Shown: positions 27,750-63,924, numbered from the stretch's first letter. The stretch: DNA of 64,000 nt from Gammaproteobacteria bacterium (GCA_965205955.1 OZ242192.1:2376796-2440795); one strand, 5' to 3'. Notes: generated by a model not told the origin, from the sequence alone. Numbers and translations: made by a program.

Positions 27750-27754
27750 GGCGT

Positions 27755-33284: not shown

Positions 33285-33288
33285 TGTC

Positions 33289-35891: not shown

Positions 35892-35899
35892 GGTTTCTC

Positions 35900-36175
35900 C
35901 AAAATGAGTGCCCTCAGGGGAAAGGCTTTATAGTAGCGTATTATGCTTGCCGGGTGGCAGGGTTAAAATTCACCGGGGCGCTTTTGAGAGGCTTTTTCTA
36001 TTTGTTTGCTGTGCAGCAATCAAACTTTTCCGGGTCGGATCCTATGCCGCACAAGGCCGGTCAATCATTTTGCCAGCCTGGCGGGGGGAGCAGCATTGTC
36101 GCCGTAGCGCACTATCTGTTTTTATTGCAGGACCTGCCGGCGTCAATATCAATGTATTGCCGGCATACTCTATCT
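35900..36175 (+). pseudogene. degenerate duplicate of the tauE promoter and 5' coding region, with an internal roughly 60-bp deletion
   Basis: 35911-36175 aligns with 42316-42640: ggggaaaggctttatagtagcgtattatg...gcaatcaaac..ttccggg..ggat..tatgc...ggcgggggg...cactatctgtttttattgcagg. ORF 35954..36211 reads QSNFSGSDPMPH...GGGSSIVAVAHYLFLLQDLP; TauE reads QSNTSGADFMLH...GGGIIIVPALHYLFLLQGFP. Confidence 0.6.
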
Positions 36176-36224
36176 ATGCGTACCTTCCCCGGTGTTTGTG
36201 ATTATCGGTGAGTGCCGGGTATGG

Positions 36225-38081: not shown

Positions 38082-38168
38082 AGGGATACCGCCCGGCTCA
38101 GGCGCAAGCGGCGGGCGGCGCCGCCGGAATGCGTGGTTGTTCGGGCAGGCGTTGAGGCATGTTTCGCA

Positions 38169-40562: not shown

Positions 40563-42023
40563 CTATTGGGCTGTTAGTATCACCTTGATGGAATTTATTA
40601 TTGCTTTGATGTAATCGCTGAATGCTTCCGCATGCTTTCCCCGGGCGAATTTTGCGCCTCCCCGTTTGGTGTATGCCTGGATATATTGCGGGTCGATTGC
40701 AATCGCCTTGCCGTAGTCTTCAATGGCTTCCGCATGCTTTTGCAAAGCGGATTTTGCAAGCCCGCGCTTGTTATATGCCCCCGCATCCCGGGGGTTGATT
40801 GCAATGGCCTTGCTGTAGTCTTCAATGGCTTCCTCATGCTTTTGCAAAAATGATTTTGCAAATCCACGGTTGTTGTATGCCCTCGCATCCTGGGGGGTGA
40901 TTTCCGTTGCTCTGGTGTAGTCCTCAATGGCTTCCGCATGCTTTTGCAAAGCGAATTTTGCAAGTCCACGGTTGTTGTATGAGTCTGCTTCCTGCGGATT
41001 GATTTCAATTGCCTTGTTGTAGTCTTCAATGGCTTCCGCATGCTTTTGCAAAAATGATTTTGTAAGTCCGCGAATGTGGTATGCCCGGGCATCCTGGGAG
41101 TTGATTTCAATTGCCTTGCTGTAGTCTTTAATGGCTTCCGCATGCTTTCCCAAAGTCGATTTTACAAGTCCGCTGATGTGGTATCCTGATTCATCCTCTG
41201 GATTGGTTTCACTTGCCTTGCCGTACCCTCTACGGACTTCCGCACGCTTTCCCGAAGCAGATTTTTCATTGCCCCGGTTGTGGTGTGCCTGGGTACCTTT
41301 CAGGGCGATTTCAATTGCTTTTTTGTAGTCTTCAATGGCTTCCTTAAAATTTTCCAAAGCAGATTTTGTGTCGGCCCGGCTGGTGTATGCCTGGATATAT
41401 TGCGGGTTGATTTCAATTGCCTTGCTGTAGTCTTCAATGGCTTCCGTATATTCTTCTAAAGAATATTTGGCATTGCCCCGGTCGTGGTATATCTGGGTAC
41501 CTTGCGGGTCTAATTCAATTGCCTTGTTATAGTCTTCAATGGCTTCCGCGTGATTTCCCAAATCAGATTTTGCATTGCCCCGGTTGTGGTATGACCGGGC
41601 ATCTTGCGGGTTTAATGCAATTGCCTGAGTATAGTCATCAATGGCTTCCGTATATCTTTCTAAATAATATCTGGCAACACCCCTGTACTTCAATTGCTTT
41701 ATTTTTATGATTCGCCTTGTTATTGCGCCAACTAAAAGGATGAGTATGATACAGCTCAATATTACCCGATTGGATTTTAAATACTGTATTATTGGTTGGA
41801 TGTAGCCCTTGCTTGCTTCCGGATGTTTTCCCAAATCAGATTTTGCATTGCCCTCATTATAGAGTACCCCGACATCTTGCCGGTTGTTTTCAGCCAGTGG
41901 CTGGACCGGTGAAATATTGAGTGCCGCTCCTCCCCCGAAAAACAGGATGATGACCAGGGCACATGGCAAACCTGACCGGGGGAAAACATACCTAATAGAA
42001 GAAAAAACCTCATTCATTCGCAT
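40563..42023 (-). CDS. tetratricopeptide-repeat protein with an N-terminal signal/TM segment; internal 102-bp DNA-level repeats
   Basis: More than 10 consecutive TPR units (...AYHIRGLTKSFLQKHAEAIEDYNKAIEINPQ...). The nucleotide repeats of gcttccgcatgcttttgcaaa... are nearly identical, which suggests recent intragenic expansion. Confidence 0.7.
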   Translation of the reverse strand: MRMNEVFSSIRYVFPRSGLPCALVIILFFGGGAALNISPVQPLAENNRQDVGVLYNEGNAKSDLGKHPEASKGYIQPIIQYLKSNRVILSCIILILLVGAITRRIIKIKQLKYRGVARYYLERYTEAIDDYTQAIALNPQDARSYHNRGNAKSDLGNHAEAIEDYNKAIELDPQGTQIYHDRGNAKYSLEEYTEAIEDYSKAIEINPQYIQAYTSRADTKSALENFKEAIEDYKKAIEIALKGTQAHHNRGNEKSASGKRAEVRRGYGKASETNPEDESGYHISGLVKSTLGKHAEAIKDYSKAIEINSQDARAYHIRGLTKSFLQKHAEAIEDYNKAIEINPQEADSYNNRGLAKFALQKHAEAIEDYTRATEITPQDARAYNNRGFAKSFLQKHEEAIEDYSKAIAINPRDAGAYNKRGLAKSALQKHAEAIEDYGKAIAIDPQYIQAYTKRGGAKFARGKHAEAFSDYIKAIINSIKVILTAQ

Positions 42024-42428
42024 ACCTGTAACTCTCCAAAGAAATAAATTGCCAAAAAAGACCGGGCGGTGCGGCGCGTTGTGATGGATGGCTACCAATG
42101 CCCAAGTATACAAGTTACCAAAAAATTCATAAATTGCAACAGTGAAGCAGGAATGTATTGCATTGGGAAGGAGAGGGATATCCGGCCGGGGACAACCTGT
42201 GTTCGACTGCGTCTATATTGCTGCAGAGCTTGTTTGCTATTTGCAACAACCGGTTTGCGCAATTGTCCGCTGTTGCGGAACGGCTTTTTCACGGGCTTGC
42301 TGTAGGTAAAAATGATTTCTCCCGGGGAAGGGCTTTATAGTAGCGTATTATGATTACAGGGTGGCAGCGTTGGAATTCCGGTCATTGTAACCCGCACTGC
42401 TTTTGGGGAGCCTTTTTTCTGTGACTTT

Positions 42429-49236: not shown

Positions 49237-51000
49237 GTGCCGTCAAAACCGTTTGATGATTTGATAGCGGAGTGTTCCCAGATTATCTATGACGGCTTCA
49301 TTCAGTATGATAATCAATTTCACCGCATCACCCGCCGCGCCAGAATCCGGTTTGAAAAGCGCGACTGGAAGGGGCATCAGCAGGATATAGTCGATCGGGT
49401 CGATCTGTATGAGCAATCAGTACGCCGCATAGTAATTCAACTGCGCCGCACCATGGGCGGACGCATCAATGATTATGATCTCTGGAATGAGATAAACACC
49501 TACTTTGGTGAACGGCTGATTGAAGTGCCGGATGCAAATTTTATCAAGACATTCTTTAATTCCACCACCCGCCGCATTTTCGGAACAGTGGGCATCGATC
49601 CGAAACTCGAGTTCATCGCCACCGATTCAATCGATGATCAGGAAATGGCCGCCTCATTAAATATCAGACGCTATCCCTACTGGGATTCGGTACAGCGCAT
49701 TTTTGAAACCATACTTGCGGATTTTTCATTTCGCAACGTTCCCTATAATGATCTGGGAAAGAATGCGGAGCACATTGCCGGGAAAATAAAATCTCATTTC
49801 AATACAGAACGGTCTTCGATAATCGGCATCCGCCGGTTTGAATTTGTTAATTCGTTCTTTTATCAGGCGGCGCGCGCCTATCTGGTCGGCAGAATTATGC
49901 TTTCCGATAACACTCTGCCGCTGGTTATCGCATTTAAAAATGAAGATGATGGAATTCATGTGGATGCCGTACTGCTGACCGAAAAGGAGGTGAGCATTGT
50001 ATTCGGCTACACGCGCTCTTATTATTTCGCCGATCCTACCTCGGTAATAGGCACGGTCTATTTCCTGCATTCGATATTGAAGGACAAGCCTGTCGATGAG
50101 CTCTATACCGTGCTGGGACGACTGCGTCAGGGCAAAACGGAACGGTATAGGATCTTTACCCGGCATATGCGTCAAAGCGATGAGCAGTTTGTGCATGCCG
50201 CGGGCGACAAAGGGCTGGTTATGATCGTATTTACATTTCCTTCCTACGATTTGGTATTCAAGGTCATACGCGATAAGTTTGGCCACCCGAAAAAGGTCTC
50301 ACGCAAAGAGGTAATCGAAAAATACAAATTGGTATCGCACCATGACCGCGCCGGGCGGTTGATAGATACCCAGGAATTTCGCAATCTTGAATATAAAATC
50401 GATCGCTTTTCGGATGAATTGCTGAATGAATTATTGTCCGAAGCCTCCAACACCGTTGAGATTGAAGGCAATAATCTGCTGCTGGGCCATGTTTATATAG
50501 AAAGACGGGTGCGCCCACTCAACCTTTATATCAATGAAATGAGCGATGACGATACCCAGCGGGCTATGATAGATTACGGGCAGACAATCAAGGACCTGGC
50601 TAAAACCAATATCTTCCCCGGCGATCTGCTGCTGAAAAATTTCGGCGTCACCAAGTATAACCGCGTTGTCTTCTACGACTATGATGAAGTTTCACTGGTC
50701 ACGGAATGCAATTTTCGCGATATTCCCGAGTCCGACAATATCGAGGATGAGATGCAGGAGGATTGCTGGTATTACGTCGGAGAAAACGATGTATTCCCGC
50801 AGGAGTTTATAAATTTTTTGGCGATGAACGATACACTGCAGGAGACTTTTATCAAATATCACAAAGATCTGCTCAGCACCCGGTACTGGCGCGATATAAA
50901 GGATAAACATTTAGCGGGAGAGGTATCGCCGGTCATCACGTATGCAAGTCCGGCGGCCTTGTTTCCGGCGCTGCCTGTAGAAAAAGATCAGTCCGATTAA
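49237..51000 (+). CDS. aceK: isocitrate dehydrogenase kinase/phosphatase
   Basis: 587 aa; N-terminal regulatory domain and C-terminal kinase domain typical of AceK. It lies immediately downstream of icd. Confidence 0.9.
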   Translation: MPSKPFDDLIAECSQIIYDGFIQYDNQFHRITRRARIRFEKRDWKGHQQDIVDRVDLYEQSVRRIVIQLRRTMGGRINDYDLWNEINTYFGERLIEVPDANFIKTFFNSTTRRIFGTVGIDPKLEFIATDSIDDQEMAASLNIRRYPYWDSVQRIFETILADFSFRNVPYNDLGKNAEHIAGKIKSHFNTERSSIIGIRRFEFVNSFFYQAARAYLVGRIMLSDNTLPLVIAFKNEDDGIHVDAVLLTEKEVSIVFGYTRSYYFADPTSVIGTVYFLHSILKDKPVDELYTVLGRLRQGKTERYRIFTRHMRQSDEQFVHAAGDKGLVMIVFTFPSYDLVFKVIRDKFGHPKKVSRKEVIEKYKLVSHHDRAGRLIDTQEFRNLEYKIDRFSDELLNELLSEASNTVEIEGNNLLLGHVYIERRVRPLNLYINEMSDDDTQRAMIDYGQTIKDLAKTNIFPGDLLLKNFGVTKYNRVVFYDYDEVSLVTECNFRDIPESDNIEDEMQEDCWYYVGENDVFPQEFINFLAMNDTLQETFIKYHKDLLSTRYWRDIKDKHLAGEVSPVITYASPAALFPALPVEKDQSD

Positions 51001-52376
51001 TCCCCGGCCGGATTATACCAGGCCAATTTTTCATGCAACCGAACCACCTCCCCGACAATAATCATGCTTGGCGGCTTTATTTGCCTGTTTCGCACCGTAT
51101 CCGGCAGCGTTTGCAGACTGCCTATATACACTTTTTGATTTAACATGGTTCCCTGCTCAATGATTGCGGCGGGCAGATCGGGAGACAGACCGCGGCGAAT
51201 CAATTCATAACTCAACTTTTCAATTCCATGCACACCCATGTAAATGGCAATAGTTTGCTGCGGCTGTACCATTGCATCCCAATTCAGGGATAAATTCTCA
51301 TCCTTCAGATGCCCGGTAACAAACAGGCATGACTGGGCAAAATCCCGGTGCGTCAACGGGATCCCCGCATAGCTTGCACAGCCGCTGGCCGCAGTAATTC
51401 CCGGCACTACCTGGAAGGATACGCCGGCCTCGGACAATAACGAGATTTCTTCGCCGCCACGCCCGAAAATAAACGGATCGCCGCCTTTCAGGCGCAACAC
51501 CCGCTTGCCCTGTTTGGCCAGATCCACCAATAATTGATTGATTTCATCCTGTGAAATGGTGTGCTGATCGTTCTTTTTTCCGACATATACACGCTCCGCA
51601 TCCTTGCGCACCAGATCAAGCACCCTTTTCGCCACCAGGCGATCATACAGGACAACATCGGCCTGCTGCATCAGGCGCAAGGCCCTGAAGGTCAGCAAAT
51701 CGGGATCGCCCGGCCCTCCTCCGACCAGATAGACCTCGCCGTGCCTTGCTATGGCATGATTATCATGCTCAAGATATTGTTCGAGCGTTCTAAGCGCCGC
51801 TTCACCCTGTCCGGCATACAGCATCTCTTCGATCGGCCCCTGTAATACTTCTTCCCAAAAGCGCCGCCGCTGCCGCATATCGGGAAAACGCTCGCGCACC
51901 GGTGTGCGAAACCGGGCAATCACCTTTGCCAATTCACCATACGAGGCGGGAATATAGGTTTCGAGACGCGCACGCAACAGGCGTGCGAGTATCGGTGATA
52001 CCCCGCCTGAAGACACCGCAATAAAGACCGGATCGCGATTGACGATGGAAGGCATGATAAAGGTGCAAAGTTCAGGGTTGTCCACCACGTTGACCGGTAT
52101 ATTTTCCGCCTGCGCCAGTTCGGAAACGCGACGATTAACCTGCTCATCATCGCTTGCCGCGATCACCATACAGTTACCGGCTATTAATTCCTCTGCGAAA
52201 TTAGATACTATGGTCTTGATCTGCTGCTGTTCGGAGAGTTGCCGGACGGCTTCATTGAAATCCGGCGACACCACAGTGACCTCCGCTCCAAATTCGAGCA
52301 ACTGCGTTATTTTGCGCAACGCGACCTCTCCGCCGCCGACTACCAGGCAGGGACGATGGGTAATATCGATGGATAT
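50997..52376 (-). CDS. cysG: siroheme synthase CysG; the start codon is uncertain and probably non-ATG
   Basis: C-terminal SUMT domain VVLYDRLV...[13 protein letters not shown]. The N-terminal Rossmann motif [27 protein letters not shown] lies upstream of the TTG at 52319. The frame is open back to a TGA at about 52392 with no ATG. The sequence ...[22 protein letters not shown] aligns to E. coli [21 protein letters not shown]. Confidence 0.85.
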
Positions 52377-52461: not shown

Positions 52462-53433
52462 TTATTCATTAATTTTTTCAAGTTTTTTCTTTTTAATAAA
52501 GAATGTATTAAATCCATATTTATTTATCCTGATCCGTAATGCTTTAAGGATGAAATTTACTGGAATTAAATCTCCAATATAATACCAATAAAACTTGTGC
52601 CCATATATTTTTTTACAAAAATCTATATAAAGTCTTTTATATTTTATTTGCCTTTTTCGATACTCTTTTATTCCAACACAACCTGGAGTATTAACTACTT
52701 CTTTTCTCCATAAAAATCTGTAAAGCCAGGGTTTATTCCTAACAAAATGTAAAAAAATAATTTTATTTTCAGGAAGATTACCTTTAAAAAAGTTATTCCA
52801 TTCTACTCCAAGACGATAAAAACTAAAAAGTCCTTTTATTCTTAAAAAGAAAAAAACTATTTCATCTGTTTCAAAATAAGCAACGTTCAACAAGTCTTTG
52901 TACAGGTTTATAAATTTTTCCTTAAACTTTTTCTTTGCCAAATTTTTATTGTTGTACACTACAACCCCTGAATTCATCCAGAATTCTTCCAAATCTTCTT
53001 CTTTCATACCCAATGTCTTCAGGAATTTTGTATATTCTGCTCTATGTACTTTCCTCAAAGCAAGCTCTTCTACTTCTTCTATTACATTCATAGGTACTTT
53101 ACCTATGCAAAAAATATCTCCATCAAGAACAATTGAATAGGAAAAGCCTTTTTTATAGAAGGCTTCCGGAATGGCACAACTCCAAAAACATTCATTTGGC
53201 CAGAGAAACTTTCTGGTATCCCCAAAAATATTTTCCAGATCAATTTTCAAAACTCCTAAATTGTATTCTTCAATAACTCTTTTGTATTTGTCACTGATAT
53301 TTCCGCAGACAAAATACTCAAAGTTTTTATTTTCCTCGTTCTTCTCCCTTACAGATAAAAGTGTAATTATTGCCTTATAGATATACCTGTCATTCGTTGA
53401 AATTACACAAACAGCAACTTTGTCTCTTGACAT
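52462..53433 (-). CDS. GT-A fold glycosyltransferase, family 8-like; paralogue 1 of 4
   Basis: MSRDKVAVCVISTNDRYIYKAIITLLSV...SIVLDGDIFC (DxD)...NSGVVVYNNKNL; about 28% GC. Confidence 0.55.
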   Translation of the reverse strand: MSRDKVAVCVISTNDRYIYKAIITLLSVREKNEENKNFEYFVCGNISDKYKRVIEEYNLGVLKIDLENIFGDTRKFLWPNECFWSCAIPEAFYKKGFSYSIVLDGDIFCIGKVPMNVIEEVEELALRKVHRAEYTKFLKTLGMKEEDLEEFWMNSGVVVYNNKNLAKKKFKEKFINLYKDLLNVAYFETDEIVFFFLRIKGLFSFYRLGVEWNNFFKGNLPENKIIFLHFVRNKPWLYRFLWRKEVVNTPGCVGIKEYRKRQIKYKRLYIDFCKKIYGHKFYWYYIGDLIPVNFILKALRIRINKYGFNTFFIKKKKLEKINE

Positions 53434-53624
53434 CGCACACTCCTTATTTTCAATGTTATTATCTGCCTCATTAACAAAAACTCCATTCACGCCAGCCCCG
53501 CAGCCATAGAAAAGGACGATTGGCCATATCTATGGATATAGATAAATAAGCCAGTTTATTTATTCGACGCTATAGTAAATCAACTCAGACCGGCGCCGGA
53601 TGATGATAGCCAGCTATATAGTTT

Positions 53625-54602
53625 TTATTCATTAATTTTTTCAAGTTTTTTCTTTTTAATAAAGAATGTATTAAATCCATATTTATTTATCCTGATCCGT
53701 AATGCTTTAAGGATGAAATTTACTGGAGTTAAATCTCCAATATAATACCAATAAAACTTGTGCTCGTATGTTTTTTTACAAAAATCTATATAAAGTATTT
53801 TATATTTGATTCTTCTTTTTTGATACTCCTGTATTCCAACACAACCTGGAGTATTAATTTCTTCTTTTCTCCATAAAAATCTGTAGAGCCAGGGTTTATA
53901 ATGTAAATGTAAAAAAATAATCTTATTTTCAGGAAGATGACCTTTAAAAAAGTTATTCCATTCTACTCCAAGACGATAAAAACTAAAAAGTCCTTTTATT
54001 CTTAAAAAGAAAAAAACTATTTCATCTTCTTCAAAATAGGAAATTTTCGATAAATCCCTGTACAGGTTTATAAATTTTTCCTTAAACTTTTTCTTTGCCA
54101 AATTTTTATTGTTGTACACTACAACTCCTGAATTCATCCAGAATTCTTCCAAATCTTCTTCTTTCATACCCAATGTCTTCAAGAGTTTTGTATATCCTGT
54201 ATTTTTTGCTCTACGTGCTTTCTGCAAAGCAAGCTCTTCTACTTCTTCTATTACATTCATAGGTACTTTACCTATGCAAAAAATATCTCCATCAAGAACA
54301 ATTGAATAGGCAAAACCTTTTTTATAGAAGGCTTCCGGAATGGCACAACTCCAAAAACATTCATTTGGCAATATAAATTCTTTGGAATCCCCAAAAATAT
54401 TTTTCAGATCAATTTTCAAAACTCCTAAATTGTATTCTTCAATAACTCTTTTGTATTTGTCACTGATATTTCCGCAGACAAAATACTCAAAGTTTTTATT
54501 TTCCTCGTTCTTCTCTCTTACAGACAGCAGCGTAATAATTGCCTTATAGACATAACTGTCATTCGTTGAAATTACACAAACAGCAACTTTATCTTTTGAC
54601 AT
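53625..54602 (-). CDS. GT8-like glycosyltransferase, paralogue 2 of 4
   Basis: Nearly identical to paralogue 1 over the first roughly 200 aa and in C-terminal type. Confidence 0.55.
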   Translation of the reverse strand: MSKDKVAVCVISTNDSYVYKAIITLLSVREKNEENKNFEYFVCGNISDKYKRVIEEYNLGVLKIDLKNIFGDSKEFILPNECFWSCAIPEAFYKKGFAYSIVLDGDIFCIGKVPMNVIEEVEELALQKARRAKNTGYTKLLKTLGMKEEDLEEFWMNSGVVVYNNKNLAKKKFKEKFINLYRDLSKISYFEEDEIVFFFLRIKGLFSFYRLGVEWNNFFKGHLPENKIIFLHLHYKPWLYRFLWRKEEINTPGCVGIQEYQKRRIKYKILYIDFCKKTYEHKFYWYYIGDLTPVNFILKALRIRINKYGFNTFFIKKKKLEKINE

Positions 54603-54756
54603 CTTACATTTCTCCTTTTCAATTTTGTTATCTGCTTCATTAAAAAAACTCCATTCGCGCCAACCCCGTAGCCACAGGACGATTGGCAATATCTTAGTCC
54701 GGTTTATTTATGCGACGCTATAGTAGTAACCTGAGCTGTCGCCGATTATGCCCACC

Positions 54757-55707
54757 TTACGATAAAAAATCTCTCACTATTTTTTTTAGCGAGAAAAAGT
54801 CAAGTAATCTTACCAAAGATTGTCTTATGATTTTCTTTATTGGTATTACATCTCCGATGTAATACCAATAAAACTTATGCCCATATATTTTTTTGCAAAA
54901 ATTAATATAAAATTCTCTATATTTTATCCTTCTTTTTTTATTTATCTCCACCCCAATATCATTTGAATCAGGCAGTTTCCCCCATAAAAATCTGTAACGC
55001 CAAGGCTTATAATGTAAATGTAGAAAAATAAGCTCACTGTCAGGAAGGATGGTGTCCAATGCACTGTTCCATTTTAGTCTAAGATCATAAAAATTAAAAA
55101 GTCCTTTCATTCTTAAAAAGAAAAAAACCGTTTCATCTACTTCAAAATAGGAAATTTTCGATAAATCCCTGTACAGGTTTATAAATTCTTCCTTAAATTT
55201 TTTCCTTGTTAAATTTTTATTATTAAAAATTATAGTTCCTGAACACATCCAACATTCTTCAATATCTTTTTGTCTAGAATTAAATTTCTTTATAATTTTT
55301 CGCAATGTAAGCTCGTTTGTTCTTTTCGCCAAAGCAAGCTCTTCTACTTCTTCTATTACATTCATAGGCACTTTACCTATGCAAAAAATATCTCCATCAA
55401 GAACAATTGAATAGGGAAAACCTTTTTTATAGAAGGCTTCCGGAATGGCACAACTCCAAAAACATTCATTTGGCAATATAAATCCTTTGGAACTTCCAAA
55501 AATATTTTTCAGATCAATTTTCAAAACTCCTAAATTGTATTCTTCAATAACTCTTTTGTATTTGTCACTGATATTTCCACAAACAAAATACTCAAAGTTT
55601 TTATTTTCCTCGTTCTTCTCCCTTACAGACAGAAGTGCAATAATTGCCTTATAAACATAACTGTCATTCGTTGAAATTACACAAACAGCAACTTTATCTG
55701 TTGACAT
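54757..55707 (-). CDS. GT8-like glycosyltransferase, paralogue 3 of 4, with an alternative C-terminal module
   Basis: The N-terminal roughly 150 aa match paralogues 1 and 2; the C-terminal half is of a second type (…CWMCSGTIIFNNKNLTRKKF…IPIKKIIRQSLVRLLDFFSLKKIVRDFLS). An A8 tract lies near the 3' end. Confidence 0.55.
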   Translation of the reverse strand: MSTDKVAVCVISTNDSYVYKAIIALLSVREKNEENKNFEYFVCGNISDKYKRVIEEYNLGVLKIDLKNIFGSSKGFILPNECFWSCAIPEAFYKKGFPYSIVLDGDIFCIGKVPMNVIEEVEELALAKRTNELTLRKIIKKFNSRQKDIEECWMCSGTIIFNNKNLTRKKFKEEFINLYRDLSKISYFEVDETVFFFLRMKGLFNFYDLRLKWNSALDTILPDSELIFLHLHYKPWRYRFLWGKLPDSNDIGVEINKKRRIKYREFYINFCKKIYGHKFYWYYIGDVIPIKKIIRQSLVRLLDFFSLKKIVRDFLS

Positions 55708-55862
55708 CTTACATCTCTCCTTTTCAATTTTGTTATCTGCTTCATTAAAAAAACTCCATTCGCGCCAACCCCGTAGCCACAGGACGATTGGCAATATCTT
55801 AGTCCGGTTTATTTATGCGACGCTATAGTAGTAACCTGAGCTGTCGCCGATTATGTCCCACC

Positions 55863-56816
55863 TTACGATAAAAAATCTCTCACTATTTTTTTTAGCGAGA
55901 AAAAGTCAAGTAATCTTACCAAAGATTTTTTTATGATTTTCTTTATTGGTATTACATCGGAGATGTAATACCAATAAAACTTATGCCCATATATTTTTTT
56001 GCAAAAATTAATATAAAATTCTCTATATTTTATTCTTCTTTTTTTATGTATCTCCACCCCAATATCATTTGAATCAGGCAATTTCTCCCATAAAAATCTG
56101 TAATGCCAAGGCTTAGAAGTGATATGCAAAAAAATAAGATCACTGTCAGGAAGGATGGTGTTCAATGGACCGTTCCATTTTACTCTAAGATCATAAAAAT
56201 TAAAAAGTCCTTTTATTCTTAAAAAGAAAAAAACCGTTTCATCTGCTTCAAAATAGGAAATTTTCGATAAATCCCTGTACAGGTTTATAAATTCTTCCTT
56301 AAATTTTTTCCTTGTTAAATTTTTATTATTAAAAATTATAGTTCCTGAACTCATCCAGCATTCTTCAATATCTTTTTGTCTAAAATTAAATTTCTTCATA
56401 ATTTTTCGCAGAAATGCCTGCCCTTTTGTTCCTATCCTCAAAGCAAGCTCTTCTACTTCTTCTATTACATTCATAGGCACTTTACCTATGCAAAAAATAT
56501 CTCCATCAAGAACAATTGAATAGGAAAAACCTTTTTTATAGAAGGCTTCCGGAATGGCACAACTCCAAAAACATTCATTTGGCCATATAAATCCTTTGGA
56601 ACCTCCAAAAATATTTTTCAGATCAATTTTCAAAACTCCTAAATTGTATTCTTCAATAACTCTTTTATATTTGTCACTGATATTTCCGCAGACAAAATAT
56701 TCAAAGTTTTTATTTTCCTCGTTCTTCTCTCTTACGGACAGAAGTGTAATGATTGCCTTATAAACATAACTGTCATTCGTTGAAATTACACAAACAGCAA
56801 CTTTATCTTTTGACAT
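55863..56816 (-). CDS. GT8-like glycosyltransferase, paralogue 4 of 4, same C-terminal type as paralogue 3
   Basis: Same type as paralogue 3. Its start region abuts the addA stop. Confidence 0.55.
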   Translation of the reverse strand: MSKDKVAVCVISTNDSYVYKAIITLLSVREKNEENKNFEYFVCGNISDKYKRVIEEYNLGVLKIDLKNIFGGSKGFIWPNECFWSCAIPEAFYKKGFSYSIVLDGDIFCIGKVPMNVIEEVEELALRIGTKGQAFLRKIMKKFNFRQKDIEECWMSSGTIIFNNKNLTRKKFKEEFINLYRDLSKISYFEADETVFFFLRIKGLFNFYDLRVKWNGPLNTILPDSDLIFLHITSKPWHYRFLWEKLPDSNDIGVEIHKKRRIKYREFYINFCKKIYGHKFYWYYISDVIPIKKIIKKSLVRLLDFFSLKKIVRDFLS

Positions 56817-56853
56817 CTTACATTTCTTCTTTTCAATTTTGTTATCTTCCTTA

Positions 56854-59800
56854 TTAACCAAAACTCCATTCGCGCCAGCCTTGCAACAAAGGGAAGTATA
56901 ACCCAAGCCTGATTTGCCTGCTATCCATTGCCTGTATCAGGCCGGCATACTTTTCCAGTTGGCCCCGGTAGCGTTCCTGTTCACGATTAAGAAAAGTCTC
57001 CACATCCGCTCCTTCGTGCCGGCTGGTTTTATAGTCAATGATCCAGCGTACGCCGTCTTCATCGACAAAAGTGCGATCGATGATTATATTAATCAGCTTG
57101 CCTTCATATAATCCGCTCAACGGATATTCATTATTTTGCTGTTCATGGTCACTGAGTATCCACCGGCCACGCTCATCCTGTACTATTTTATTCAGGGCTT
57201 CGGCAATCTGGACGTCGGCCCAGGCTATTTCATTCTCCCGAATGCCCTGCTGTTTCAGCATTGCCACAAAACGTTCTTTGTTTTGCCCAATTCTTGCCTC
57301 GTTCCACGTATCCACTCCCTCTTCCGCAATCTGCCTGAGGCACTGATGCACTACTAAGCCAACATGCTTTATTGTCTCGCCCGCCCATTGGTATTCAACC
57401 AAGTCATACTCTTGTTCGCTATCCCCCATCTGCTGTTTATTCGCCCACTCTAAGGGTTTATCAGGCAATGGGCTCCGCCAGTCCGGATGAATACGATACA
57501 GTGCATTGTTTTTCATCGGGATGCCCGTCGCCATACCGGCTTCGATTTGCTCCGGGAGCTCCACTTGATAGTGTTGCCGCAATACCGGCCAGAGGTGGCT
57601 CAAGAGCGAGTGCGCTGCCGCTGCGCAAACCATGCCGCCCTCGTTACCCTGTTTACATTCGGCATGACCAATCAAGTGCAGGGATTTTGCGGCACGGGTA
57701 CCGGCAACATAAAGCAGCCGCGTTTCTTCATGATGCTTTTTTCGTTTTTCTATGCTGTCAATGTAGTTGTAGATAGGCGCGGTTTCTTCTCCGGATTCCT
57801 TTATCGGCGCCAATAGCAGATCGTTTCCCTGTTGTTGCCCATTCGACCTCAGCATCCACGCCAATAATTCAGCTTGTCCGCGTTTTTGGCCGCGACCCAG
57901 TCCCGGGACGATGACATGATCGAATTCCAGCCCCTTGGCCTTATGAATGGTCATGATCTGCAAGGCATCGCCGGCCTGTTTGTCGGGGGCGGCATATAAT
58001 TTCTGTACTTCGTCCATAAACCGCTGCGGGTTGTTCAGTTCGCCTCCACGGTCAAACTGTTCCAGCAATTCAAGATAGGTGTTGATGTTCTCCAGGTCGT
58101 GTTCCGCCGCCAGCGTAGCCGGCCCTCCGAGCCGCATCCATAATGTTTCGATGATTTTCCTCAGTGGTTGCCGCTGCTGATTGTCGAAGGCTTCCCGGAA
58201 ACATTCGATCAATTTTTGCAATCTGAGGGCAGCCTGCTTGTCCAGTTGTTGTTTCGGGGCATTTATAGCCTGCCATACCGTGCGCCTGTTCTCACGATTC
58301 ACCAGAGTGTGCATATCCTGCAGCGACAGACCGCACCAGGGCGCCCGCAATACTGCCAGCCAGGCGGTGCGATCGGCCAAATGTATATACGCACGGGTCA
58401 GGGCCAATATATCCTGTATCGCCGGGCGTTGGCCAAGCGCCTCGATCTCTATCGCCCGAAACGGCAGGTCTTGCCTCCTCAATAACGGAACCAGTTCATT
58501 TAAATGCGAACGACTGCGCACCAGTATTGCAATGCTGGCATCAGGGTCTTGCTGTCTGATAGTTTCCAGGATATTCCGCACCTGCTCGGCTTCTTCTGCA
58601 CCGTCGCCGGTAAACAGCGGATAACAGTTGACCGCCCCGCCATCCGGATTATCCTGCGCCATGGACGGCATATAGCGGACCGCCCCGGTGAGGGCATCAT
58701 CCTGATCGGGCAGTATTTCAGCAAAGCTCGTATTGACCCAATCAACCACACCCGGCAAAGAGCGGAAATTGACCGATAGCTGCAACGGCGCTAGTTCTAT
58801 CTGCCCCAGATGCTGCTGGTGGTATGTATTGATAAACAGCCCTACCTCGGCCTGGCGAAAGCGATAGATGGACTGCATAGGATCTCCCACCAGGAATAAA
58901 CTGCGGCCCTCGTCCTGCGTCCAACCTTCTGTCAACTGGCGAATCAATCGATATTGATTAATGGAAATATCCTGAAACTCATCTACCAGTATATGTTTGA
59001 TTTGATAGTCCAGATGCAGCGCCAGATCGGTCGGGGCATCCTCTTTACCCAGCGCGCAAATCGCCGCCTGGGCCATGCCGATGTAATCAATCTGGCTGTG
59101 TTCTGCGAAACACAGGCGCAACTGCGCTTCGGCAACTACCAGGCCTATGCACAGGGCGTTCACCGTTTTCCATTCCTCATCATCATAGGATGCGGCCGGC
59201 AGTATCTTTATTTCGGCAAGCTGGGAGCGCAATTCGTCGTTTGGCTTTAACTGGTTTATCAGGTCTGCAATGCGTTCTTTCATATCAGCGCGTTCCCGAC
59301 TCTCCGGCGTCTTGCCTTTCGGAGCAGGAAATCCATTGCGCTTGTCAAACGACTTTCTCCAGTCATCTTTATCGGTCAATAATAATTTGACAATGCCGGC
59401 CCATTGCTCCAGGTCTTCGATGCGGTCTCCCGGAATAGTTTCAATGGAGGCACAATTTACAATGCTGTGCGTTCCATTTTCCCGCTGCAGATTACCGGCG
59501 GCGAAACGCAGGATACCGCAAAGTTCGGCTTCGACTTCGCGCGGGAAAAGCCTTGCAAGCGCGGCAAGCTGCTCTTCGATGATATTTTGCAATGACTGCT
59601 CCAGAGCGGAACGATCCGGAACCTGCGCCACATGAGGCAGCCACTGATCGCGTTTCTTCAACATATCCACGATCAATCTTTTAATGCGGGGCAGATCGTT
59701 ATCGAGATGCAGCAGCAGGCAGGCGATCGCGTCTGCATAAGACCCCCCATTTTCAAGCTCCGCCAATGTATTGATCGCCGCCTGTTCGTATAAGGGTTCG

Positions 59801-60255
59801 GCGTCATCGACAATCTCCGGTTGCGCACCGAGAGATGACGGCACCGGCATTTGCCCGGATAACCAGGCGCAGAGTGCGTCTATGGTTTGTATGCGTAAAC
59901 GAGCGGGGTTGGCGCGTATATCCCAGTCGTGTTTTGCATCGTGTTTCAATACGGCCTCAGCCAGTTCCCAGGTTTGCCGCCGATGTTCATCCTGCGGCCG
60001 CTGCCCGGTTCTGACAGCCTCAATTGCCGCCAGAATACGGCCTTGCATTTCGGCGGCGGCCTTGCGGGTAAAGGTTACTGCGATAATCTCTTCCGGCGAA
60101 TCGACCAGAGTCAGTAGCCGCAGGTAACGCTGGGTCAACAATTCGGTTTTGCCCGAGCCCGCCGGCGCCTGAATGATGAATGACTGTCCGGGATCAATCG
60201 CCTGCAGGCGCTGTTTGTAATCGATAGGCTGCATTTTTGCTTGCTGAAACTTCAA
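56854..60255 (-). CDS. addA: ATP-dependent helicase/nuclease subunit A (AddA/RexA-like: UvrD-type SF1 helicase plus a C-terminal RecB-family nuclease)
   Basis: N-terminal FIIQAPAGSGKTELLTQRYL (Walker A), helicase motifs, and C-terminal nuclease IIDRTFVDEDGVRWIIDYKTS; 1133 aa. Confidence 0.8.
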   Translation of the reverse strand: MKFQQAKMQPIDYKQRLQAIDPGQSFIIQAPAGSGKTELLTQRYLRLLTLVDSPEEIIAVTFTRKAAAEMQGRILAAIEAVRTGQRPQDEHRRQTWELAEAVLKHDAKHDWDIRANPARLRIQTIDALCAWLSGQMPVPSSLGAQPEIVDDAEPLYEQAAINTLAELENGGSYADAIACLLLHLDNDLPRIKRLIVDMLKKRDQWLPHVAQVPDRSALEQSLQNIIEEQLAALARLFPREVEAELCGILRFAAGNLQRENGTHSIVNCASIETIPGDRIEDLEQWAGIVKLLLTDKDDWRKSFDKRNGFPAPKGKTPESRERADMKERIADLINQLKPNDELRSQLAEIKILPAASYDDEEWKTVNALCIGLVVAEAQLRLCFAEHSQIDYIGMAQAAICALGKEDAPTDLALHLDYQIKHILVDEFQDISINQYRLIRQLTEGWTQDEGRSLFLVGDPMQSIYRFRQAEVGLFINTYHQQHLGQIELAPLQLSVNFRSLPGVVDWVNTSFAEILPDQDDALTGAVRYMPSMAQDNPDGGAVNCYPLFTGDGAEEAEQVRNILETIRQQDPDASIAILVRSRSHLNELVPLLRRQDLPFRAIEIEALGQRPAIQDILALTRAYIHLADRTAWLAVLRAPWCGLSLQDMHTLVNRENRRTVWQAINAPKQQLDKQAALRLQKLIECFREAFDNQQRQPLRKIIETLWMRLGGPATLAAEHDLENINTYLELLEQFDRGGELNNPQRFMDEVQKLYAAPDKQAGDALQIMTIHKAKGLEFDHVIVPGLGRGQKRGQAELLAWMLRSNGQQQGNDLLLAPIKESGEETAPIYNYIDSIEKRKKHHEETRLLYVAGTRAAKSLHLIGHAECKQGNEGGMVCAAAAHSLLSHLWPVLRQHYQVELPEQIEAGMATGIPMKNNALYRIHPDWRSPLPDKPLEWANKQQMGDSEQEYDLVEYQWAGETIKHVGLVVHQCLRQIAEEGVDTWNEARIGQNKERFVAMLKQQGIRENEIAWADVQIAEALNKIVQDERGRWILSDHEQQNNEYPLSGLYEGKLINIIIDRTFVDEDGVRWIIDYKTSRHEGADVETFLNREQERYRGQLEKYAGLIQAMDSRQIRLGLYFPLLQGWREWSFG

Positions 60256-60342
60256 GGTTCAAGACTACTTCGCGGCATTCACCAGGTTTTCTGTGCTTGC
60301 AAGGGTGCGAGTTTCGCTTCAATATGTGCCATGAAGATACGT

Positions 60343-61179
60343 TCACTTGCTGCAATCTATCCGCAATCGGCTTCTTAGGTCATCTTGAGCCTTGAAAATT
60401 TTTGATATTAGATAAGAGGAAAAATAATCAAAATAATTTTTATAATTTAAATTCTCTCTTTTATATAGATTTTTCATAAATCTGTGAGCCTCTAATCTTG
60501 TGATCCACCATAGTCCGCCGGTTTTTTTTAACTTTGACGATATGCTATCTTCAGCATGACAATGGTAATTATAACTTTCTTCGAGAATCAAAAAATTTTC
60601 TTTCCGAAAAATTCGGGAATAAACATTAATTCTGAAATCTATTGCTAATAAGCTGTAATGTAAAGAAAAAATATTTTCATATAAACATTTGGAAAAAAAT
60701 TCCCTTTTCATGCTGATAGAGCTGGTAGGAATAATAGTAGGCCATATATTTTTTTGATACTTTCGTTTTAATTTAAACAATTTTTTTTCATCTTTTTGCA
60801 AAATTAAAACCGGTAAATCAAAAATTACTTCTTTATCATATTGTGCATATTTTTCTTTTAAGCATTGAAGTTTATTGTCTGAAAAAAAATCATCTCCGTC
60901 CAACAAACAAATCACTTCTCCTTTTGATATGTTAAAAGCCTCTATTGTTAAATCTATTTGATTTATAATCGGATAATTACTTATTCTTTCTTTTTTTATA
61001 ATTTTTAAAAAATTTGAATACCTGCTTAAAATATCTTCCGTATTGTCTGTTGACATATTATCCGCAAGAATAATTTCAAAATCTCTCTCCTTTTGACTCA
61101 AACAAGATTTAATACAACGCTCTATGTATTTCCCTTTATTAAAACTGGTAATAATTATGGAAAAATATATTTTATTCAT
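60343..61179 (-). CDS. family 2 glycosyltransferase (GT2), AT-rich, inserted between addB and addA
   Basis: FSIIITSFNKGKYIERCIKSCLSQKERDFEIILADNMSTDNTEDIL and the DxD motif LLDGDDFF; about 27% GC against about 52% flanks. Confidence 0.8.
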   Translation of the reverse strand: MNKIYFSIIITSFNKGKYIERCIKSCLSQKERDFEIILADNMSTDNTEDILSRYSNFLKIIKKERISNYPIINQIDLTIEAFNISKGEVICLLDGDDFFSDNKLQCLKEKYAQYDKEVIFDLPVLILQKDEKKLFKLKRKYQKNIWPTIIPTSSISMKREFFSKCLYENIFSLHYSLLAIDFRINVYSRIFRKENFLILEESYNYHCHAEDSISSKLKKTGGLWWITRLEAHRFMKNLYKRENLNYKNYFDYFSSYLISKIFKAQDDLRSRLRIDCSK

Positions 61180-61290
61180 TTGATGCAGATGATACAGTTT
61201 GCAGAATATTTTTTATAACACTTTATTAACCAATGAACATTGCGCTAGTCTGAAGCCGGGGACATTGGTCATAACCCGGCATATCAAAAT

Positions 61291-63924
61291 TTATGCCCGG
61301 ATGTCGGCCTTTTCATAGATCCGGCATAAGGCATGCAGGTCGCAATATCGGCAGGCCTGTTGATCTCTGGGCGCGACCGTCGCATCACCCTCGCGAAAGG
61401 CCCGGGCAAGGCCGGTCAATTTTTCCCGCCATTCTTCAAGCTGCTCCTGCCAGGAACGATCCTTGGGCCTGTTTACATTGGGGAGCAATTCCCCGTGCTC
61501 GGCAATGCCAATAAAGCGCATTGCTCCGCGCTTGATCCGGGCAAACACCACTCCGGCAATATGTCCCTCTGCGGTAATGGCATACAGAGGCAGTTGCGGT
61601 TCGCTGGGTCTTTCAGTTTGCCAGTATTGAAGGGTTGCGTTGCCGGTCTTGTAATCGATAATCACCCGTTCACCACCGGCCAACTCATCAATGCGATCAA
61701 TTCGCATAGTAATGTTTATATCGTTAAAAGCCAGTCTGTGCCATTGCTCCACCGATATGACTTTGAACGCCGTGCGTTCGCGCTCCAACATCAGCCACTC
61801 CTTCAATAAGGCGACCAGACGCTGCTGTTCCAGCTCGGCAAAGCGTCTGGTGAATGTTTCAGGCCGTATTGCCGCCTGCCGCTTCAAGGTTTTGGCAACA
61901 ACGGAATGGATTACTGTATTCATTTCATTCCCGGATTTTTGCCGGAGATTGTCCGATGTTTTCAATCTCTGCCAAAGATGCTGCAATACCTCATGCACCA
62001 GCGAGCCGCGCTCCGCTGGAGTAGGGCCGATATCCTGCAGCGACAGGCTATCCGCATGCAGTCTGTGTTTGGCAAAGGCCCTGAACGGACAGGCGGCCTG
62101 ATTCTTGAGTATAGCCGTGCCGCCACGAACAAGGCCGCTATCGGTTATTTTTGGGGCAATGTCATCGACAAAGGTCTCGAAGCGTCCGGATCTGAAGACG
62201 ACCGCCCTGAAATCGTCCGCGTCCGAATCGTGCGGTACGGTGCGCTCCTGTAGGAAATCGGCTATCAGAGGACTGGGGCGCAAATCCTGATCCTGATCCT
62301 TCCCGGCGTAACTAAAAACAATTTCTCCGGCTGAATTGGTTAATTCTTCGGTGATTTGCCTTGCCTGCTGATACTGCCGTTTGGCAGTGGCCTCCGGCAC
62401 GTCCGCTGCGGTTTGCAGCGCCAAGGGAATAAACGGGGCGGGTTTCGCCGCAGGCGGCCATTGCTGATCGTGTGCCCCCAGCACCCACAGGAAATCGAAC
62501 TGCATGCCCGCGGCACCGGGTATGCCCAGGATCTGGATCGGTGTTTCGACGGTTTCCGGCTGGAAACTGCTATCCGAAACAATTTGTGACAACCGCGACA
62601 ATGCCTGATTATAGGTGGCATTTTCACTAATCCGATCTAGACTGGAAAGCTGCTGCAGAACATCCTGCCAGGCGGTACTGATTTGGTATTCCTCACTATT
62701 TAAAGGCCGCTCCCCCGGCCAGCCTAACTGCGCCAGCCATTCGGAAAATGTCTTTGCCCAGTCATGTAGCGATTGTTTTTCCGGGGTACTCAAGAAATGC
62801 GTATGGAATTTCTTGAGACTCCGAATGAATATGGGGCATTGTTTGTGCGATCCGGCTTGTTTCTCCGCGAATTGAAACAAGGTCTTTACAGTCAGGGATT
62901 TTTCTCCGTATTCACGCAGGCAGGCATCGAATGACGCGCGCTTGAACCGCTCTGCATCTCTTCCCGATAAATAAGGGGAAAGCAATACTGTGCTGAGCTG
63001 ACTCAATGGAATTTTTCTTCTACCCAATGCCAACAGTGTCATGGCAACATGGACCATTCCATAGCTTGATAAGGGCCTGCCCAATGAAATGGTATAGGGC
63101 TTGACTTCGGTATCTTCAAATTGAATCAATGATTCCGGTGCCAGTACGCCGGAAAATTCACTTTCGATAAGCGCTCGCTGGGATTTTAAATTGAGCGCGA
63201 TAATGCCTATTCTTGCTTCAGGGCCGTCTATCAATTTTTGTTTTGCCCATTGTGCCGCCCGCCTGATCTCGTCGCGGCTATCGGATGCGGCAAATGCCTC
63301 AGCCGATCGATTCTTTTGGCAAATAGCGGCTTTGCTGACACGGCAGCCTGCAGCCATTAATGCCTGAATCAAGGTTTGTTGCTGTGCGGTGTGGCGATCA
63401 AAACCGTACAATACTATATGTCGATCGGTCTGCCGGCTTAGGTTATCGGCAATGTGATCGGGCAGGCTGAAACTGTCCACCCAGTTATTGTCAGCCAGTG
63501 TGCGTTCATAGTCTTGTACCCACATACGGAAGTTATATGCATCATCATTCAAATATATATCTTCGGGAAATACCGGGATCCCCGCGCTTTTGCAGGTTTG
63601 ATAACTGTGTATCGCAAGCCTTGCCGTCGCAATTGGATACAGGCACTGAGCGACAAAATTCGACCGCTGCACCACGTTTTGCCATAATGCCTGTTGCTGA
63701 CAGTTGTTCAATAAAATCGGCTGCCGCTCCATGGTGAATGACATCGCCTGCCATTCGCGCCTGCACCAGCCGGTCCAGGATATAACATCCGGCGTTTTCC
63801 ATGCTGTTTCGGACGTTTGCAGTCGCAACATGGCATAACCATAGCGCAGATGGCGGCTTAAACGTTGCGTTGGTGTGATGATCTCGGCGGCATCCGATAT
63901 ATGCCGGATAATATCCTCATTCAT
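61291..63924 (-). CDS. addB: helicase/nuclease subunit B (AddB-like) with a RecB-family nuclease and an Fe-S cluster cysteine motif
   Basis: The C-terminus has ...ACPFRAF...IDRIDELAGGERVIIDYKTG...CRYCDLHALC; 877 aa. Confidence 0.75.
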   Translation of the reverse strand: MNEDIIRHISDAAEIITPTQRLSRHLRYGYAMLRLQTSETAWKTPDVISWTGWCRREWQAMSFTMERQPILLNNCQQQALWQNVVQRSNFVAQCLYPIATARLAIHSYQTCKSAGIPVFPEDIYLNDDAYNFRMWVQDYERTLADNNWVDSFSLPDHIADNLSRQTDRHIVLYGFDRHTAQQQTLIQALMAAGCRVSKAAICQKNRSAEAFAASDSRDEIRRAAQWAKQKLIDGPEARIGIIALNLKSQRALIESEFSGVLAPESLIQFEDTEVKPYTISLGRPLSSYGMVHVAMTLLALGRRKIPLSQLSTVLLSPYLSGRDAERFKRASFDACLREYGEKSLTVKTLFQFAEKQAGSHKQCPIFIRSLKKFHTHFLSTPEKQSLHDWAKTFSEWLAQLGWPGERPLNSEEYQISTAWQDVLQQLSSLDRISENATYNQALSRLSQIVSDSSFQPETVETPIQILGIPGAAGMQFDFLWVLGAHDQQWPPAAKPAPFIPLALQTAADVPEATAKRQYQQARQITEELTNSAGEIVFSYAGKDQDQDLRPSPLIADFLQERTVPHDSDADDFRAVVFRSGRFETFVDDIAPKITDSGLVRGGTAILKNQAACPFRAFAKHRLHADSLSLQDIGPTPAERGSLVHEVLQHLWQRLKTSDNLRQKSGNEMNTVIHSVVAKTLKRQAAIRPETFTRRFAELEQQRLVALLKEWLMLERERTAFKVISVEQWHRLAFNDINITMRIDRIDELAGGERVIIDYKTGNATLQYWQTERPSEPQLPLYAITAEGHIAGVVFARIKRGAMRFIGIAEHGELLPNVNRPKDRSWQEQLEEWREKLTGLARAFREGDATVAPRDQQACRYCDLHALCRIYEKADIRA

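Follow-up and report, generated by a model that had tools for sequence, protein, structure and literature searches.

Why a glycosyltransferase gene of strongly deviant base composition sits between two recombination-repair genes, and whether that position ties glycan modification to DNA repair, is the question raised by this locus. The window analyzed here is a 64,000-nt stretch of a gammaproteobacterial genome (GCA_965205955.1 OZ242192.1:2376796-2440795), and the gene, encoding a family 2 glycosyltransferase (GT2), lies on its minus strand at 60343..61179 (837 nt including the stop codon, 278 amino acids). At 26.5% GC the open reading frame stands apart from the flanking addB-like and addA-like genes (52–53% GC), as it does in GC3 (0.24 vs 0.56–0.59), a contrast in composition for which chance is excluded by far. 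A fine-scale GC profile places the foreign-composition tract at ~60393..61240, ~850 bp that comprise one gene and ~60 nt of leader. The first-pass annotation had described a low-GC GT2 gene between addB and addA on the same strand, and this is what we find.

The predicted product is clearly a family 2 glycosyltransferase, with residues 7–133 matching PF00535 (Glycos_transf_2; E = 1.3e-21, 77.7 bits against a cut-off of 23.3) and a DXD motif at D94-G-D96-D97. Residues D40, D94, and D97 are invariant in 65 homologues and D96 is conserved in at least 90%; the window protein keeps all four, along with every other family-invariant residue. The AF2 model is confident (pLDDT 92.1, pTM 0.89) and adopts a GT-A fold, and its best Foldseek matches in the PDB are the WrtF fucosyltransferase, SpsA, a Leptospira glycosyltransferase, and TarS/TarP (E ~1e-15). 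The protein thus shares its nucleotide-sugar-binding Rossmann-like domain, DXD motif, and fold with the soluble GT-A enzymes of CAZy GT2/PF00535 (SpsA, WrtF, TarS/TarP, TuaG/WcaA-type), at only 15–23% identity to any solved structure. As all NCBIfam equivalog scores are also far below their cut-offs, no donor or acceptor specificity can be assigned. Exact-sequence look-up returned no database match for the window protein, for which P0001, 99% identical, served as stand-in. The last ~16 amino acids (KAQDDLRSRLRIDCSK) overrun the C-termini of the homologues and are encoded in ~45% GC DNA; the gene has apparently lost its native stop codon and so acquired a 16-amino-acid C-terminal extension.

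Upstream on the same strand, the addB-like gene (61291..63924, minus strand) encodes an 877-amino-acid PD-(D/E)XK nuclease of the TIGR03623 type, a model named "probable DNA repair protein" (852 bits, cut-off 299.6; PF12705, E = 2.4e-30) for which our literature search found no paper. Its product does not reach the equivalog cut-offs of addB_alphas and addB_Gpos, and its C-terminal cysteine motif (CRYCDLHALC) is intact. Downstream, the addA-like gene (56854..60234, minus strand) encodes 1126 amino acids from the ATG at 60234, with UvrD-helicase, UvrD_C, and C-terminal PD-(D/E)XK (PDDEXK_1) domains, and scores 240.7 bits against addA_alphas (cut-off 860.75). Judged by these profiles, the product of 56854–60234 is AddA-like below equivalog level and the pair is AddAB-like, of TIGR03623 type, so the "addBA" of the first-pass annotation holds as an AddB-like/AddA-like pair and falls short for AddA at the NCBIfam equivalog cut-offs. 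The start at 60234 follows from comparison with relatives, with which the N-terminus MQPIDYKQRLQAIDPGQSFIIQAPAGSGKT aligns, and the distance from the addB-like stop to the addA-like ATG is therefore 1056 nt, made up of a 111-nt spacer (spacer 1, 61180..61290, minus strand, from the addB-like stop to the GT2 ATG), the GT2 gene, and a 108-nt spacer (spacer 2, 60235..60342, minus strand, ~45% GC, from the GT2 stop to the addA-like ATG). An interval of 60255–61291 had been given earlier; such a gap does exist, measured to the furthest-upstream TTG of the addA reading frame rather than to the ATG. Both repair genes are intact around the insertion.

Synteny built from AddB homologues and their contigs bears out the expectation that addB and addA are normally tightly linked. 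In the relative whose AddB is 63% identical (L004), addA begins with an ATG that overlaps the addB stop, and cysG and aceK follow directly after addA; the two genes also overlap in L005–L007 and are 31 nt apart in L003. That L003 might be a relative without addA was rejected, as tblastn finds an N-terminal addA fragment 31 nt after addB, followed by an N run and a misplaced addA C-terminus, which indicates a scaffolding problem. (An AddA search of the genome contigs gave only a 21%-identical Chloroflexi match.) The closest relatives recorded (AddB 63% and 46% identical) contain neither GT2 nor the downstream glycosyltransferase array, and since their repair genes overlap or lie 31 nt apart, GT2 is a true insertion. 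None of these relatives carries the same gene at native GC; they simply lack it. The locus thus shares with AddAB-type operons two same-strand genes with the expected domains, which overlap in relatives, and departs from them in the 1056 nt and unrelated gene in between and in an AddA below the equivalog cut-offs.

An abrupt jump in composition within an assembly that probably derives from a metagenome could arise if SAR11 reads had been mis-joined into a gammaproteobacterial contig. This explanation is refuted by comparison of four assemblies of the same species (the window, ERZ25069316, ERZ25069323, and ERZ25069324; contigs of 0.48–2.6 Mb): all four have the same layout and junctions, with an intact 837-nt GT2 reading frame at the same site at ~1% divergence, and SNP-level divergence runs continuously over addB, GT2, and addA. 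Moreover, no SAR11 protein exceeds 54% identity to the insert. Since four independent assemblies share the insertion, it is no assembly artifact and is older than the split of these strains, in all of which it is fixed; GT2 itself diverges among them by 0.6–1.4%, similar to the two repair genes. Six A/T runs of 7–8 nt within GT2 raised phase variation as a candidate, which we rejected because the length of the reading frame is the same in all four strains.

Where might the gene have come from? Outside its own species, the best homologues are GT2 proteins encoded in marine metagenomes, including Tara, and in Candidatus Pelagibacter MAGs, at 50–54% identity over alignments spanning 87–93% of the query, and their loci have a GC content of 20–24%. 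They include an uncharacterized SAR11/Pelagibacter GT2 orthogroup, whose members are 50–54% identical across ~92% of the length, share the invariant residues, and have a similarly low GC. The homologues are surrounded by GT1, GT2, and GT4 genes, epimerases, and methyltransferases, with a DUF8201 membrane protein gene directly downstream; the neighborhood of DUF8201, Methyltransf_21, and epimerase genes is present at five of the homologue loci (L008–L012) and absent at two (L013–L014). These neighborhoods agree with HVR2, a hypervariable region of SAR11 reported to be rich in glycosyltransferases (PMC3448164). In the SAR11 orthogroup, DUF8201 and Methyltransf_21 come next after the gene, amid many glycosyltransferase and epimerase genes, whereas none of the DUF8201, Methyltransf_21, or epimerase partners was found around the window GT2, which stands alone between repair genes, in a gammaproteobacterial genome of ~52% GC, and carries the 16-amino-acid extension.

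No transfer vehicle was found in IMG/VR, GenBank phages, or PLSDB: these viral contigs, phages, and plasmids hold no full-length GT2 relative, and their matches cover the N-terminal domain only, at 25–40% identity. There is no recombinase among the neighbors of GT2 and no tRNA target in the window, where Rfam and tRNA scans found nothing. The only border repeat of the insert is a 9-nt (11/12) inverted match (61281–61292 and 60397–60408), which is at chance level (0.86 8-mers expected from shuffles, with a genome-wide pattern count equal to expectation), and searches for target-site duplications or terminal repeats at the borders likewise gave chance-level matches only. The GT2 locus shows no signature of a mobile element, integron cassette, or genomic island. 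It does resemble phage morons and single-gene genomic islets in that one gene of deviant composition, unaccompanied by recombinase, tRNA, or significant flanking repeats, lies between neighbors that are adjacent in relatives.

On balance, we consider it probable that GT2 is a horizontally acquired accessory surface-glycan transferase whose position in the addB-addA junction is accidental. A single gene for a soluble GT-A-fold enzyme would have been taken from an AT-rich marine donor, of SAR11/Pelagibacter type or similar, and inserted precisely at the addB-like/addA-like junction in an ancestor of the species. The enzyme is predicted to use a nucleotide-sugar as donor and to glycosylate an oligosaccharide acceptor in a surface glycan, of LPS/O-antigen or capsule type, thereby adding an accessory decoration; it may work together with the GT8-like array that follows the addA-like gene. 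Its site in a repair operon would then be an accident of tolerated illegitimate recombination with no functional link to repair, and the event looks like ordinary horizontal gene transfer. Counting against this surface-glycan reading are the absent partner genes, a pN/pS of 0.54, the C-terminal extension, the lack of an obvious Shine-Dalgarno sequence before the GT2 ATG on direct inspection, and a best foreign identity of only 54%.

Several of these same points would fit a neutral or decaying passenger, brought in by illegitimate recombination and without a glycan role, which persists because its removal is unselected or which serves as a spacer or promoter for addA. The pN/pS of GT2 among the four strains (11 non-synonymous and 4 synonymous variable sites) is about twice the 0.27–0.28 of the addB-like and addA-like genes, which hints at relaxed constraint, although the difference falls short of significance (Fisher p = 0.10) and the ratio remains below 1. 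The usual DUF8201 and methyltransferase partners are missing, the C-terminus reads through into non-native sequence, and no Shine-Dalgarno-like sequence is visible. Yet four strains that differ by ~1% all have an intact reading frame of equal length, although it contains six frameshift-prone A/T runs, and its catalytic and family-invariant residues are all retained; we regard a mere passenger as possible but rather unlikely.

The first-pass annotation had further proposed that glycan modification may be coupled to the expression of DNA repair. We find this unsupported: the nearest GT2 homologues all lie in surface-polysaccharide clusters and none lies beside repair genes, and functional coupling of GT2 to DNA repair is speculation. 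A still more direct link, in which DNA or the AddAB machinery is the target of the enzyme, for instance through DNA glycosylation that alters end-processing or self/non-self discrimination, would draw only on gene order and fixation in four strains. We think it extremely improbable: besides those polysaccharide neighborhoods, the closest structures belong to transferases for oligosaccharides and teichoic acid, no such gene accompanies the repair pair in relatives, and phage collections hold no full-length relative.

How the gene is expressed bears on what the insertion has done to its neighbors. Spacer 1 starts with ~50 nt of ~47% GC that include a GCCGGG...CCCGGC hairpin without a T-run, and the remainder is AT-rich; this spacer has 8 variable sites among the four strains, in all of which spacer 2 is identical. 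By blastn and tblastx, both spacers gave chance-level matches only against the window and all loci, and their predicted folds are no better than those of shuffles. Consensus scans, which can miss weak or non-sigma-70 signals, found no promoter-like or terminator-like site on the coding strand of either spacer. This lack of signals is compatible with read-through, yet is not evidence for it, and it is plausible that addB, GT2, and addA are co-transcribed. On the surface-transferase reading, transcripts of GT2 probably either start at the addB promoter and read through, or start at a weak promoter that its AT-rich leader happens to contain, and the insertion would disrupt the addB-addA overlap and hence any translational coupling. 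If GT2 is indeed expressed by read-through, the locus would show in nature how a housekeeping transcription unit can take up a foreign accessory gene with no mobile-element machinery involved; our literature search found no report of an addAB-glycosyltransferase operon linkage arising by horizontal transfer.

A different outcome would be a moron-like unit expressed from its own promoter, independently of addB, and perhaps supplying a new promoter for addA, so that the operon is split rather than coupled. Fortuitous sigma-70-like promoters are frequent in AT-rich foreign DNA, and a promoter-like site inside GT2 (60664 to 60636, 9/12 matches) faces the addA-like gene. In addition, a 162-nt stretch upstream of the addA-like ATG is invariant in the four strains (P ~0.01–0.05 against the third-codon-position rate) and could be a constrained leader or promoter of addA. 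Promoter-like matches over the scanned region exceed the shuffle mean by ~2 sd (38 vs 27.6, sd 4.8), yet single 9/12 sites such as this one are weak evidence individually. Morons by definition have their own promoter and terminator, whereas none was detected at the window GT2 (no promoter-like site in the 111-nt spacer before the gene, no terminator-like site after it), and the context is chromosomal rather than prophage. We hold such a unit to be improbable.

The insertion by itself opens no long-standing question. It illustrates that an addB-addA overlap, with any translational coupling, can be disrupted while both genes persist, and, if the proposed origin is true, that a mid-GC gammaproteobacterium can receive genes from AT-rich surface-glycan islands of SAR11 type. 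Its practical value is modest, in that it flags a strain-variable glycan locus (GT2 and the GT8-like array) in an uncultured lineage.

That array is the more unusual feature of the region, being a rare family with strain-variable copy number. It occupies 52462..56816 (minus strand) as four tandem, low-GC (~30%) cassettes of ~1.1 kb, with genes at 55863–56816, 54757–55707, 53625–54602, and 52462–53433. The first follows the native addA-like end at 56859–56892, and copies of the last ~34 nt of the addA-like gene precede cassettes 2–4 (55749–55782, 54644–54677, and 53476–53509). Beyond it lies cysG (sirohaem synthase; 50997..52319, minus strand), which, as it directly follows addA in L004, marks the native downstream border. 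Since L004, with its addA-cysG-aceK order, lacks both the low-GC array and GT2, both are acquisitions, in agreement with the horizontal origin proposed earlier. The first-pass description of glycosyltransferases on both sides of the repair operon is accurate for addA itself, which is so flanked; GT2 lies inside the operon. The label "GT8" is likewise a partial fit: five of nine family members match PF01501 over nearly the full profile at 18–23 bits, below the gathering score of 24.3 (best E = 4.2e-5, sub-threshold), and the motifs LDGDIF and FLH..(H)YKPW are conserved, while the AF2 model is poor (pLDDT 49) and a profile search of the family against the PDB gave no match.

Array copy number differs between strains, mosaic recombinants occur, and a 37-nt palindrome is a candidate recombination breakpoint. 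In the lgt-type LOS loci of Neisseria and Haemophilus, tandem GT2, GT25, and GT8 paralogues recombine, and the present locus resembles these in its tandem GT8-like paralogues, mosaic recombinants, strain differences in copy number, and a nearby GT2. It differs in that homopolymer length does not vary in the four strains and the family is barely recognizable as GT8, and an action of the array on LOS would be speculative. One could take the addB-addA-cysG region as a landing pad for AT-rich, promoterless glycosyltransferase cassettes of one gene each, inserted by an unrecognized mechanism, with a read-through-expressed GT2 and the array together yielding a strain-variable surface glycan. Such cassettes would move between unrelated marine bacteria without recombinase, tRNA, or repeats, and array copy number and mosaicism would supply the glycan variation; we find this idea improbable. 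Solitary low-GC GT8-like islets of ~1 kb are also seen in two unrelated genomes from the same study (L018 and L019), a hint that such glycosyltransferase cassettes spread.

In transcription order along the minus strand, the locus consists of an addB-like gene (63924-61291, 877 aa), a 111-nt spacer (spacer 1), the family-2 glycosyltransferase (GT2) ORF (61179-60343, 278 aa), a 108-nt spacer (spacer 2), an addA-like gene (ATG 60234 to 56854, 1126 aa), four tandem cassettes of ~1.1 kb ending at 52462, and cysG (52319-50997). This confirms the first-pass annotation in placing the GT2 between addB and addA, but corrects the length of the gene to 837 nt with its stop codon and the start of addA to the ATG at 60234 rather than a TTG at 60255. 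The 877-aa protein matches PF12705 (PD-(D/E)XK) and scores 852 bits with the NCBIfam model TIGR03623 ('probable DNA repair protein'; cut-off 299.6), while the 1126-aa protein carries UvrD-helicase, UvrD_C, and C-terminal PD-(D/E)XK domains; because the latter does not reach the NCBIfam AddA equivalog cut-offs, the pair is best described as 'AddB-like' and 'AddA-like'. Both genes are undamaged: AddB aligns with relatives across its Cys motif (CRYCDLHALC), and AddA does so over its N-terminus, Walker A included.

The GT2, which matches PF00535 (Glycos_transf_2; E 1.3e-21), differs sharply in composition from its neighbors (GC 26.5% and GC3 0.24, vs 52-53% and 0.56-0.59), with the low-GC tract spanning ~61240 to ~60393 in a 40-nt sliding profile. 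AddB homologues were gathered and their contigs inspected (L003-L007), and at these loci addB and addA overlap or lie 31 nt apart with no GT2. At L004 (JGI 3300009922; AddB 63% identical, 53% GC), addB and addA overlap at their stop and start codons (TAATG), and cysG and aceK directly follow addA, without a GT2 or a cassette array; the two genes likewise overlap at the three loci with 46% identity (GCA_013112535.1 and two Logan assemblies). At L003 (Botbay15 contig, JGI 3300000051; 63% identical), 31 nt separate addB from the addA start, after which the contig runs into Ns and a misjoin. Here (12672-13205 and 811-1764) an N-terminal addA fragment follows addB and is succeeded by the N run, with the C-terminal third of addA ~11 kb upstream on the same strand; we rejected a true loss of addA at this locus in favor of a scaffolding error or rearrangement.

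Within the species itself, the addB-111 nt-GT2-108 nt-addA layout is identical, and the 837-nt GT2 ORF intact, in all four assemblies (the window, ERZ25069324 contig_2 of 1.72 Mb, ERZ25069316 contig_1 of 2.63 Mb, and ERZ25069323 contig_2 of 0.48 Mb). Pairwise nucleotide divergence among these strains is 0.5-1.0% for addB, 0.6-1.4% for the GT2, and 1.0-1.5% for addA. An assembly chimera is excluded by the recurrence of this layout and an intact ORF across four assemblies diverging by ~1%; the GT2 is a real insertion that was already present in their common ancestor.

Searching a collection of 5.8 billion proteins returned a near-identical GT2 from the sister strain only, and every other match was at most 54% identical. 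These were GT2s of 255-267 aa from Tara Oceans and further marine metagenomes, a few of them named Candidatus Pelagibacter sp. by NCBI. Most of the homologues whose contigs were examined (L008-L012) are surrounded by GT1, GT2, and GT4 genes, sugar epimerases, and methyltransferases, and genes for a DUF8201 protein of 550 aa and for Methyltransf_21 come directly downstream; at the other two loci (L013-L014) the homologue adjoins unrelated genes, with sugar-metabolism genes farther downstream. The SAR11-type loci have 20-24% GC, and the L008-L012 neighborhoods are of the same kind as the glycosyltransferase-rich hypervariable island described in SAR11 genomes (PMC3448164). Horizontal acquisition, as first proposed, is thus well supported by foreign GC and GC3, absence from relatives, and marine homologues: the GT2 was acquired as a single-gene islet.

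In an alignment of 65 sequences, the protein has retained every residue that is invariant or nearly so, among them D40 and the DXD motif (D94-G-D96-D97). Its AlphaFold2 model is confident (pLDDT 92.1), and the top PDB matches, the WrtF fucosyltransferase, SpsA, a Leptospira GT, and TarS/TarP (E ~1e-15, 15-23% identity), are soluble enzymes of the GT-A type, decorating oligosaccharide or polymer acceptors. As no NCBIfam equivalog comes near its cut-off, no sugar specificity can be assigned to the protein. Its C-terminal 16 residues overhang the ends of the homologues and are encoded by DNA of ~45% GC; the original stop codon was probably removed by the recombination junction.

The four strains differ in the GT2 at 4 synonymous and 11 non-synonymous sites, a pN/pS of 0.54 that is not significantly different from those of addB (0.27) and addA (0.28; Fisher p = 0.10). 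Although it contains six A/T runs of 7-8 nt, the ORF is unbroken in each of the four strains, and every catalytic residue is kept, which favors at least weak purifying selection on the GT2. A slowly decaying passenger is, in our estimation, rather unlikely.

Scans confined to consensus matches found no promoter-like or terminator-like sites on the coding strand of either spacer, and one weak promoter-like site within the GT2 directed towards addA. Predicted folding of the two spacers is no better than that of shuffled sequence (z = -0.87 and +1.31), and the hairpin after the addB stop has no T-run. Read-through from addB into the GT2, as the first-pass annotation proposed, is compatible with these scans, making co-transcription plausible. 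The insertion abolishes the addB/addA overlap seen in relatives, and any translational coupling is therefore lost too. The four strains are identical over 162 nt (60232-60393) taking in the GT2 C-terminal extension, spacer 2, and the start codon of addA, with the nearest variable sites at 60394 and 60231, while spacer 1 has eight such sites; this invariance is marginal against third-position variability (P about 0.01-0.05), a weak hint of constraint on the stretch, possibly as leader or promoter of addA. The further suggestion that a glycan gene is coupled to DNA-repair expression is unsupported, as the inspected homologues never lie beside repair genes and relatives with the repair pair lack the GT2; on this context, a functional coupling is unlikely.

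As to how the insert arrived, a tRNA scan found no tRNA gene in the window, and no recombinase or transposase lies near the GT2. The only border repeat is a 9-nt (11/12) inverted match at chance level, the spacers resemble no other sequence compared in the window and collected loci, and searches of viral contigs, phage genomes, and plasmids gave no full-length relative. By elimination, the default would be a short foreign fragment joined by illegitimate recombination.

The more unusual feature of the locus is the array of four GT8-like cassettes downstream of addA (52462-56892 including the addA end, minus strand, ~30% GC). Its family matches GT8 only below threshold, conserves DGD and H..(H)YKPW motifs, and is exceedingly scarce: the 5.8 billion proteins include six clusters of it at 90% identity, and a single ENA study supplied them all. 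Downstream of the native addA end comes cassette 1, and cassettes 2-4 are each preceded by a copy of the final ~34 nt of addA (LRGWREWS) that is closer to the L004 addA end than to the window's own (LQGWREWSFG); tandem duplication of a unit including the addA 3' end would be the simplest explanation. Three assemblies have four cassettes and ERZ25069323 has three, one of them a mosaic of two cassette types. Two cassettes contain within their coding region a perfect 17+3+17-nt palindrome (54836-54872 and 55942-55978) encoding YWYYI-x-DVIPIK; imperfect versions occur at 52556-52592 and 53719-53755. The two perfect copies carry the central 3 nt in opposite orientations (TCC vs GGA, Gly vs Ser), as if the hairpin had inverted, and the palindrome may be a recombination breakpoint.

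Two unrelated genomes from the same ENA study carry GT8-like homologues (56% and 48% identical) in ~1-kb islets of 23-33% GC, solitary in L018 (10001-11098) and duplicated in L019 (8696-9588 and 10001-11023). One islet lies beside CoA-transferase genes in DNA of locally ~60% GC, and the other, with a broken second copy upstream of it, beside an SNF2/PLD helicase and a restriction-modification gene. Mainly because of these islets, one can entertain the idea that solitary AT-rich glycosyltransferase genes spread like cassettes without a recombinase, this locus serving as a landing pad, though we hold this to be improbable.

Elsewhere in the window, a type II CRISPR-Cas locus (1744-7803) encodes a 1151-aa Cas9-like protein (RuvC_III, HNH, and Cas9_a domains), Cas1, and, at the Cas2 position, a 133-aa ORF with no Pfam match at the threshold used; its array holds ~18 copies of a 36-nt repeat (ATTGTAACACACAAGGAAATGCGGTCTCACCGCAAC) with a 66-nt period. 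An AT-rich intergenic tandem repeat (21036-21596; 106 nt x 5.3 copies, 95% identity, internal 20-nt sub-repeat) is flanked by a lytic transglycosylase gene and an AAA ATPase gene. A defence-type island (22828-39389) includes Type I R-M genes (HsdR with a DUF559 insert, HsdM, and HsdS), DUF4143/AAA_14, Bro-N, DUF3644, a nucleotidyltransferase substrate-binding protein, a NERD-UvrD helicase, and an IrrE/M78 peptidase; GC is low again, at 33-38%, in its hsdS/DUF3644 part (29-33 kb). Finally, a 102-nt (34-aa) repeat is present in ~9 copies at 40624-41650 within a 516-aa ORF (40563-42113, minus strand), a period that would fit a TPR/Sel1-type repeat protein.
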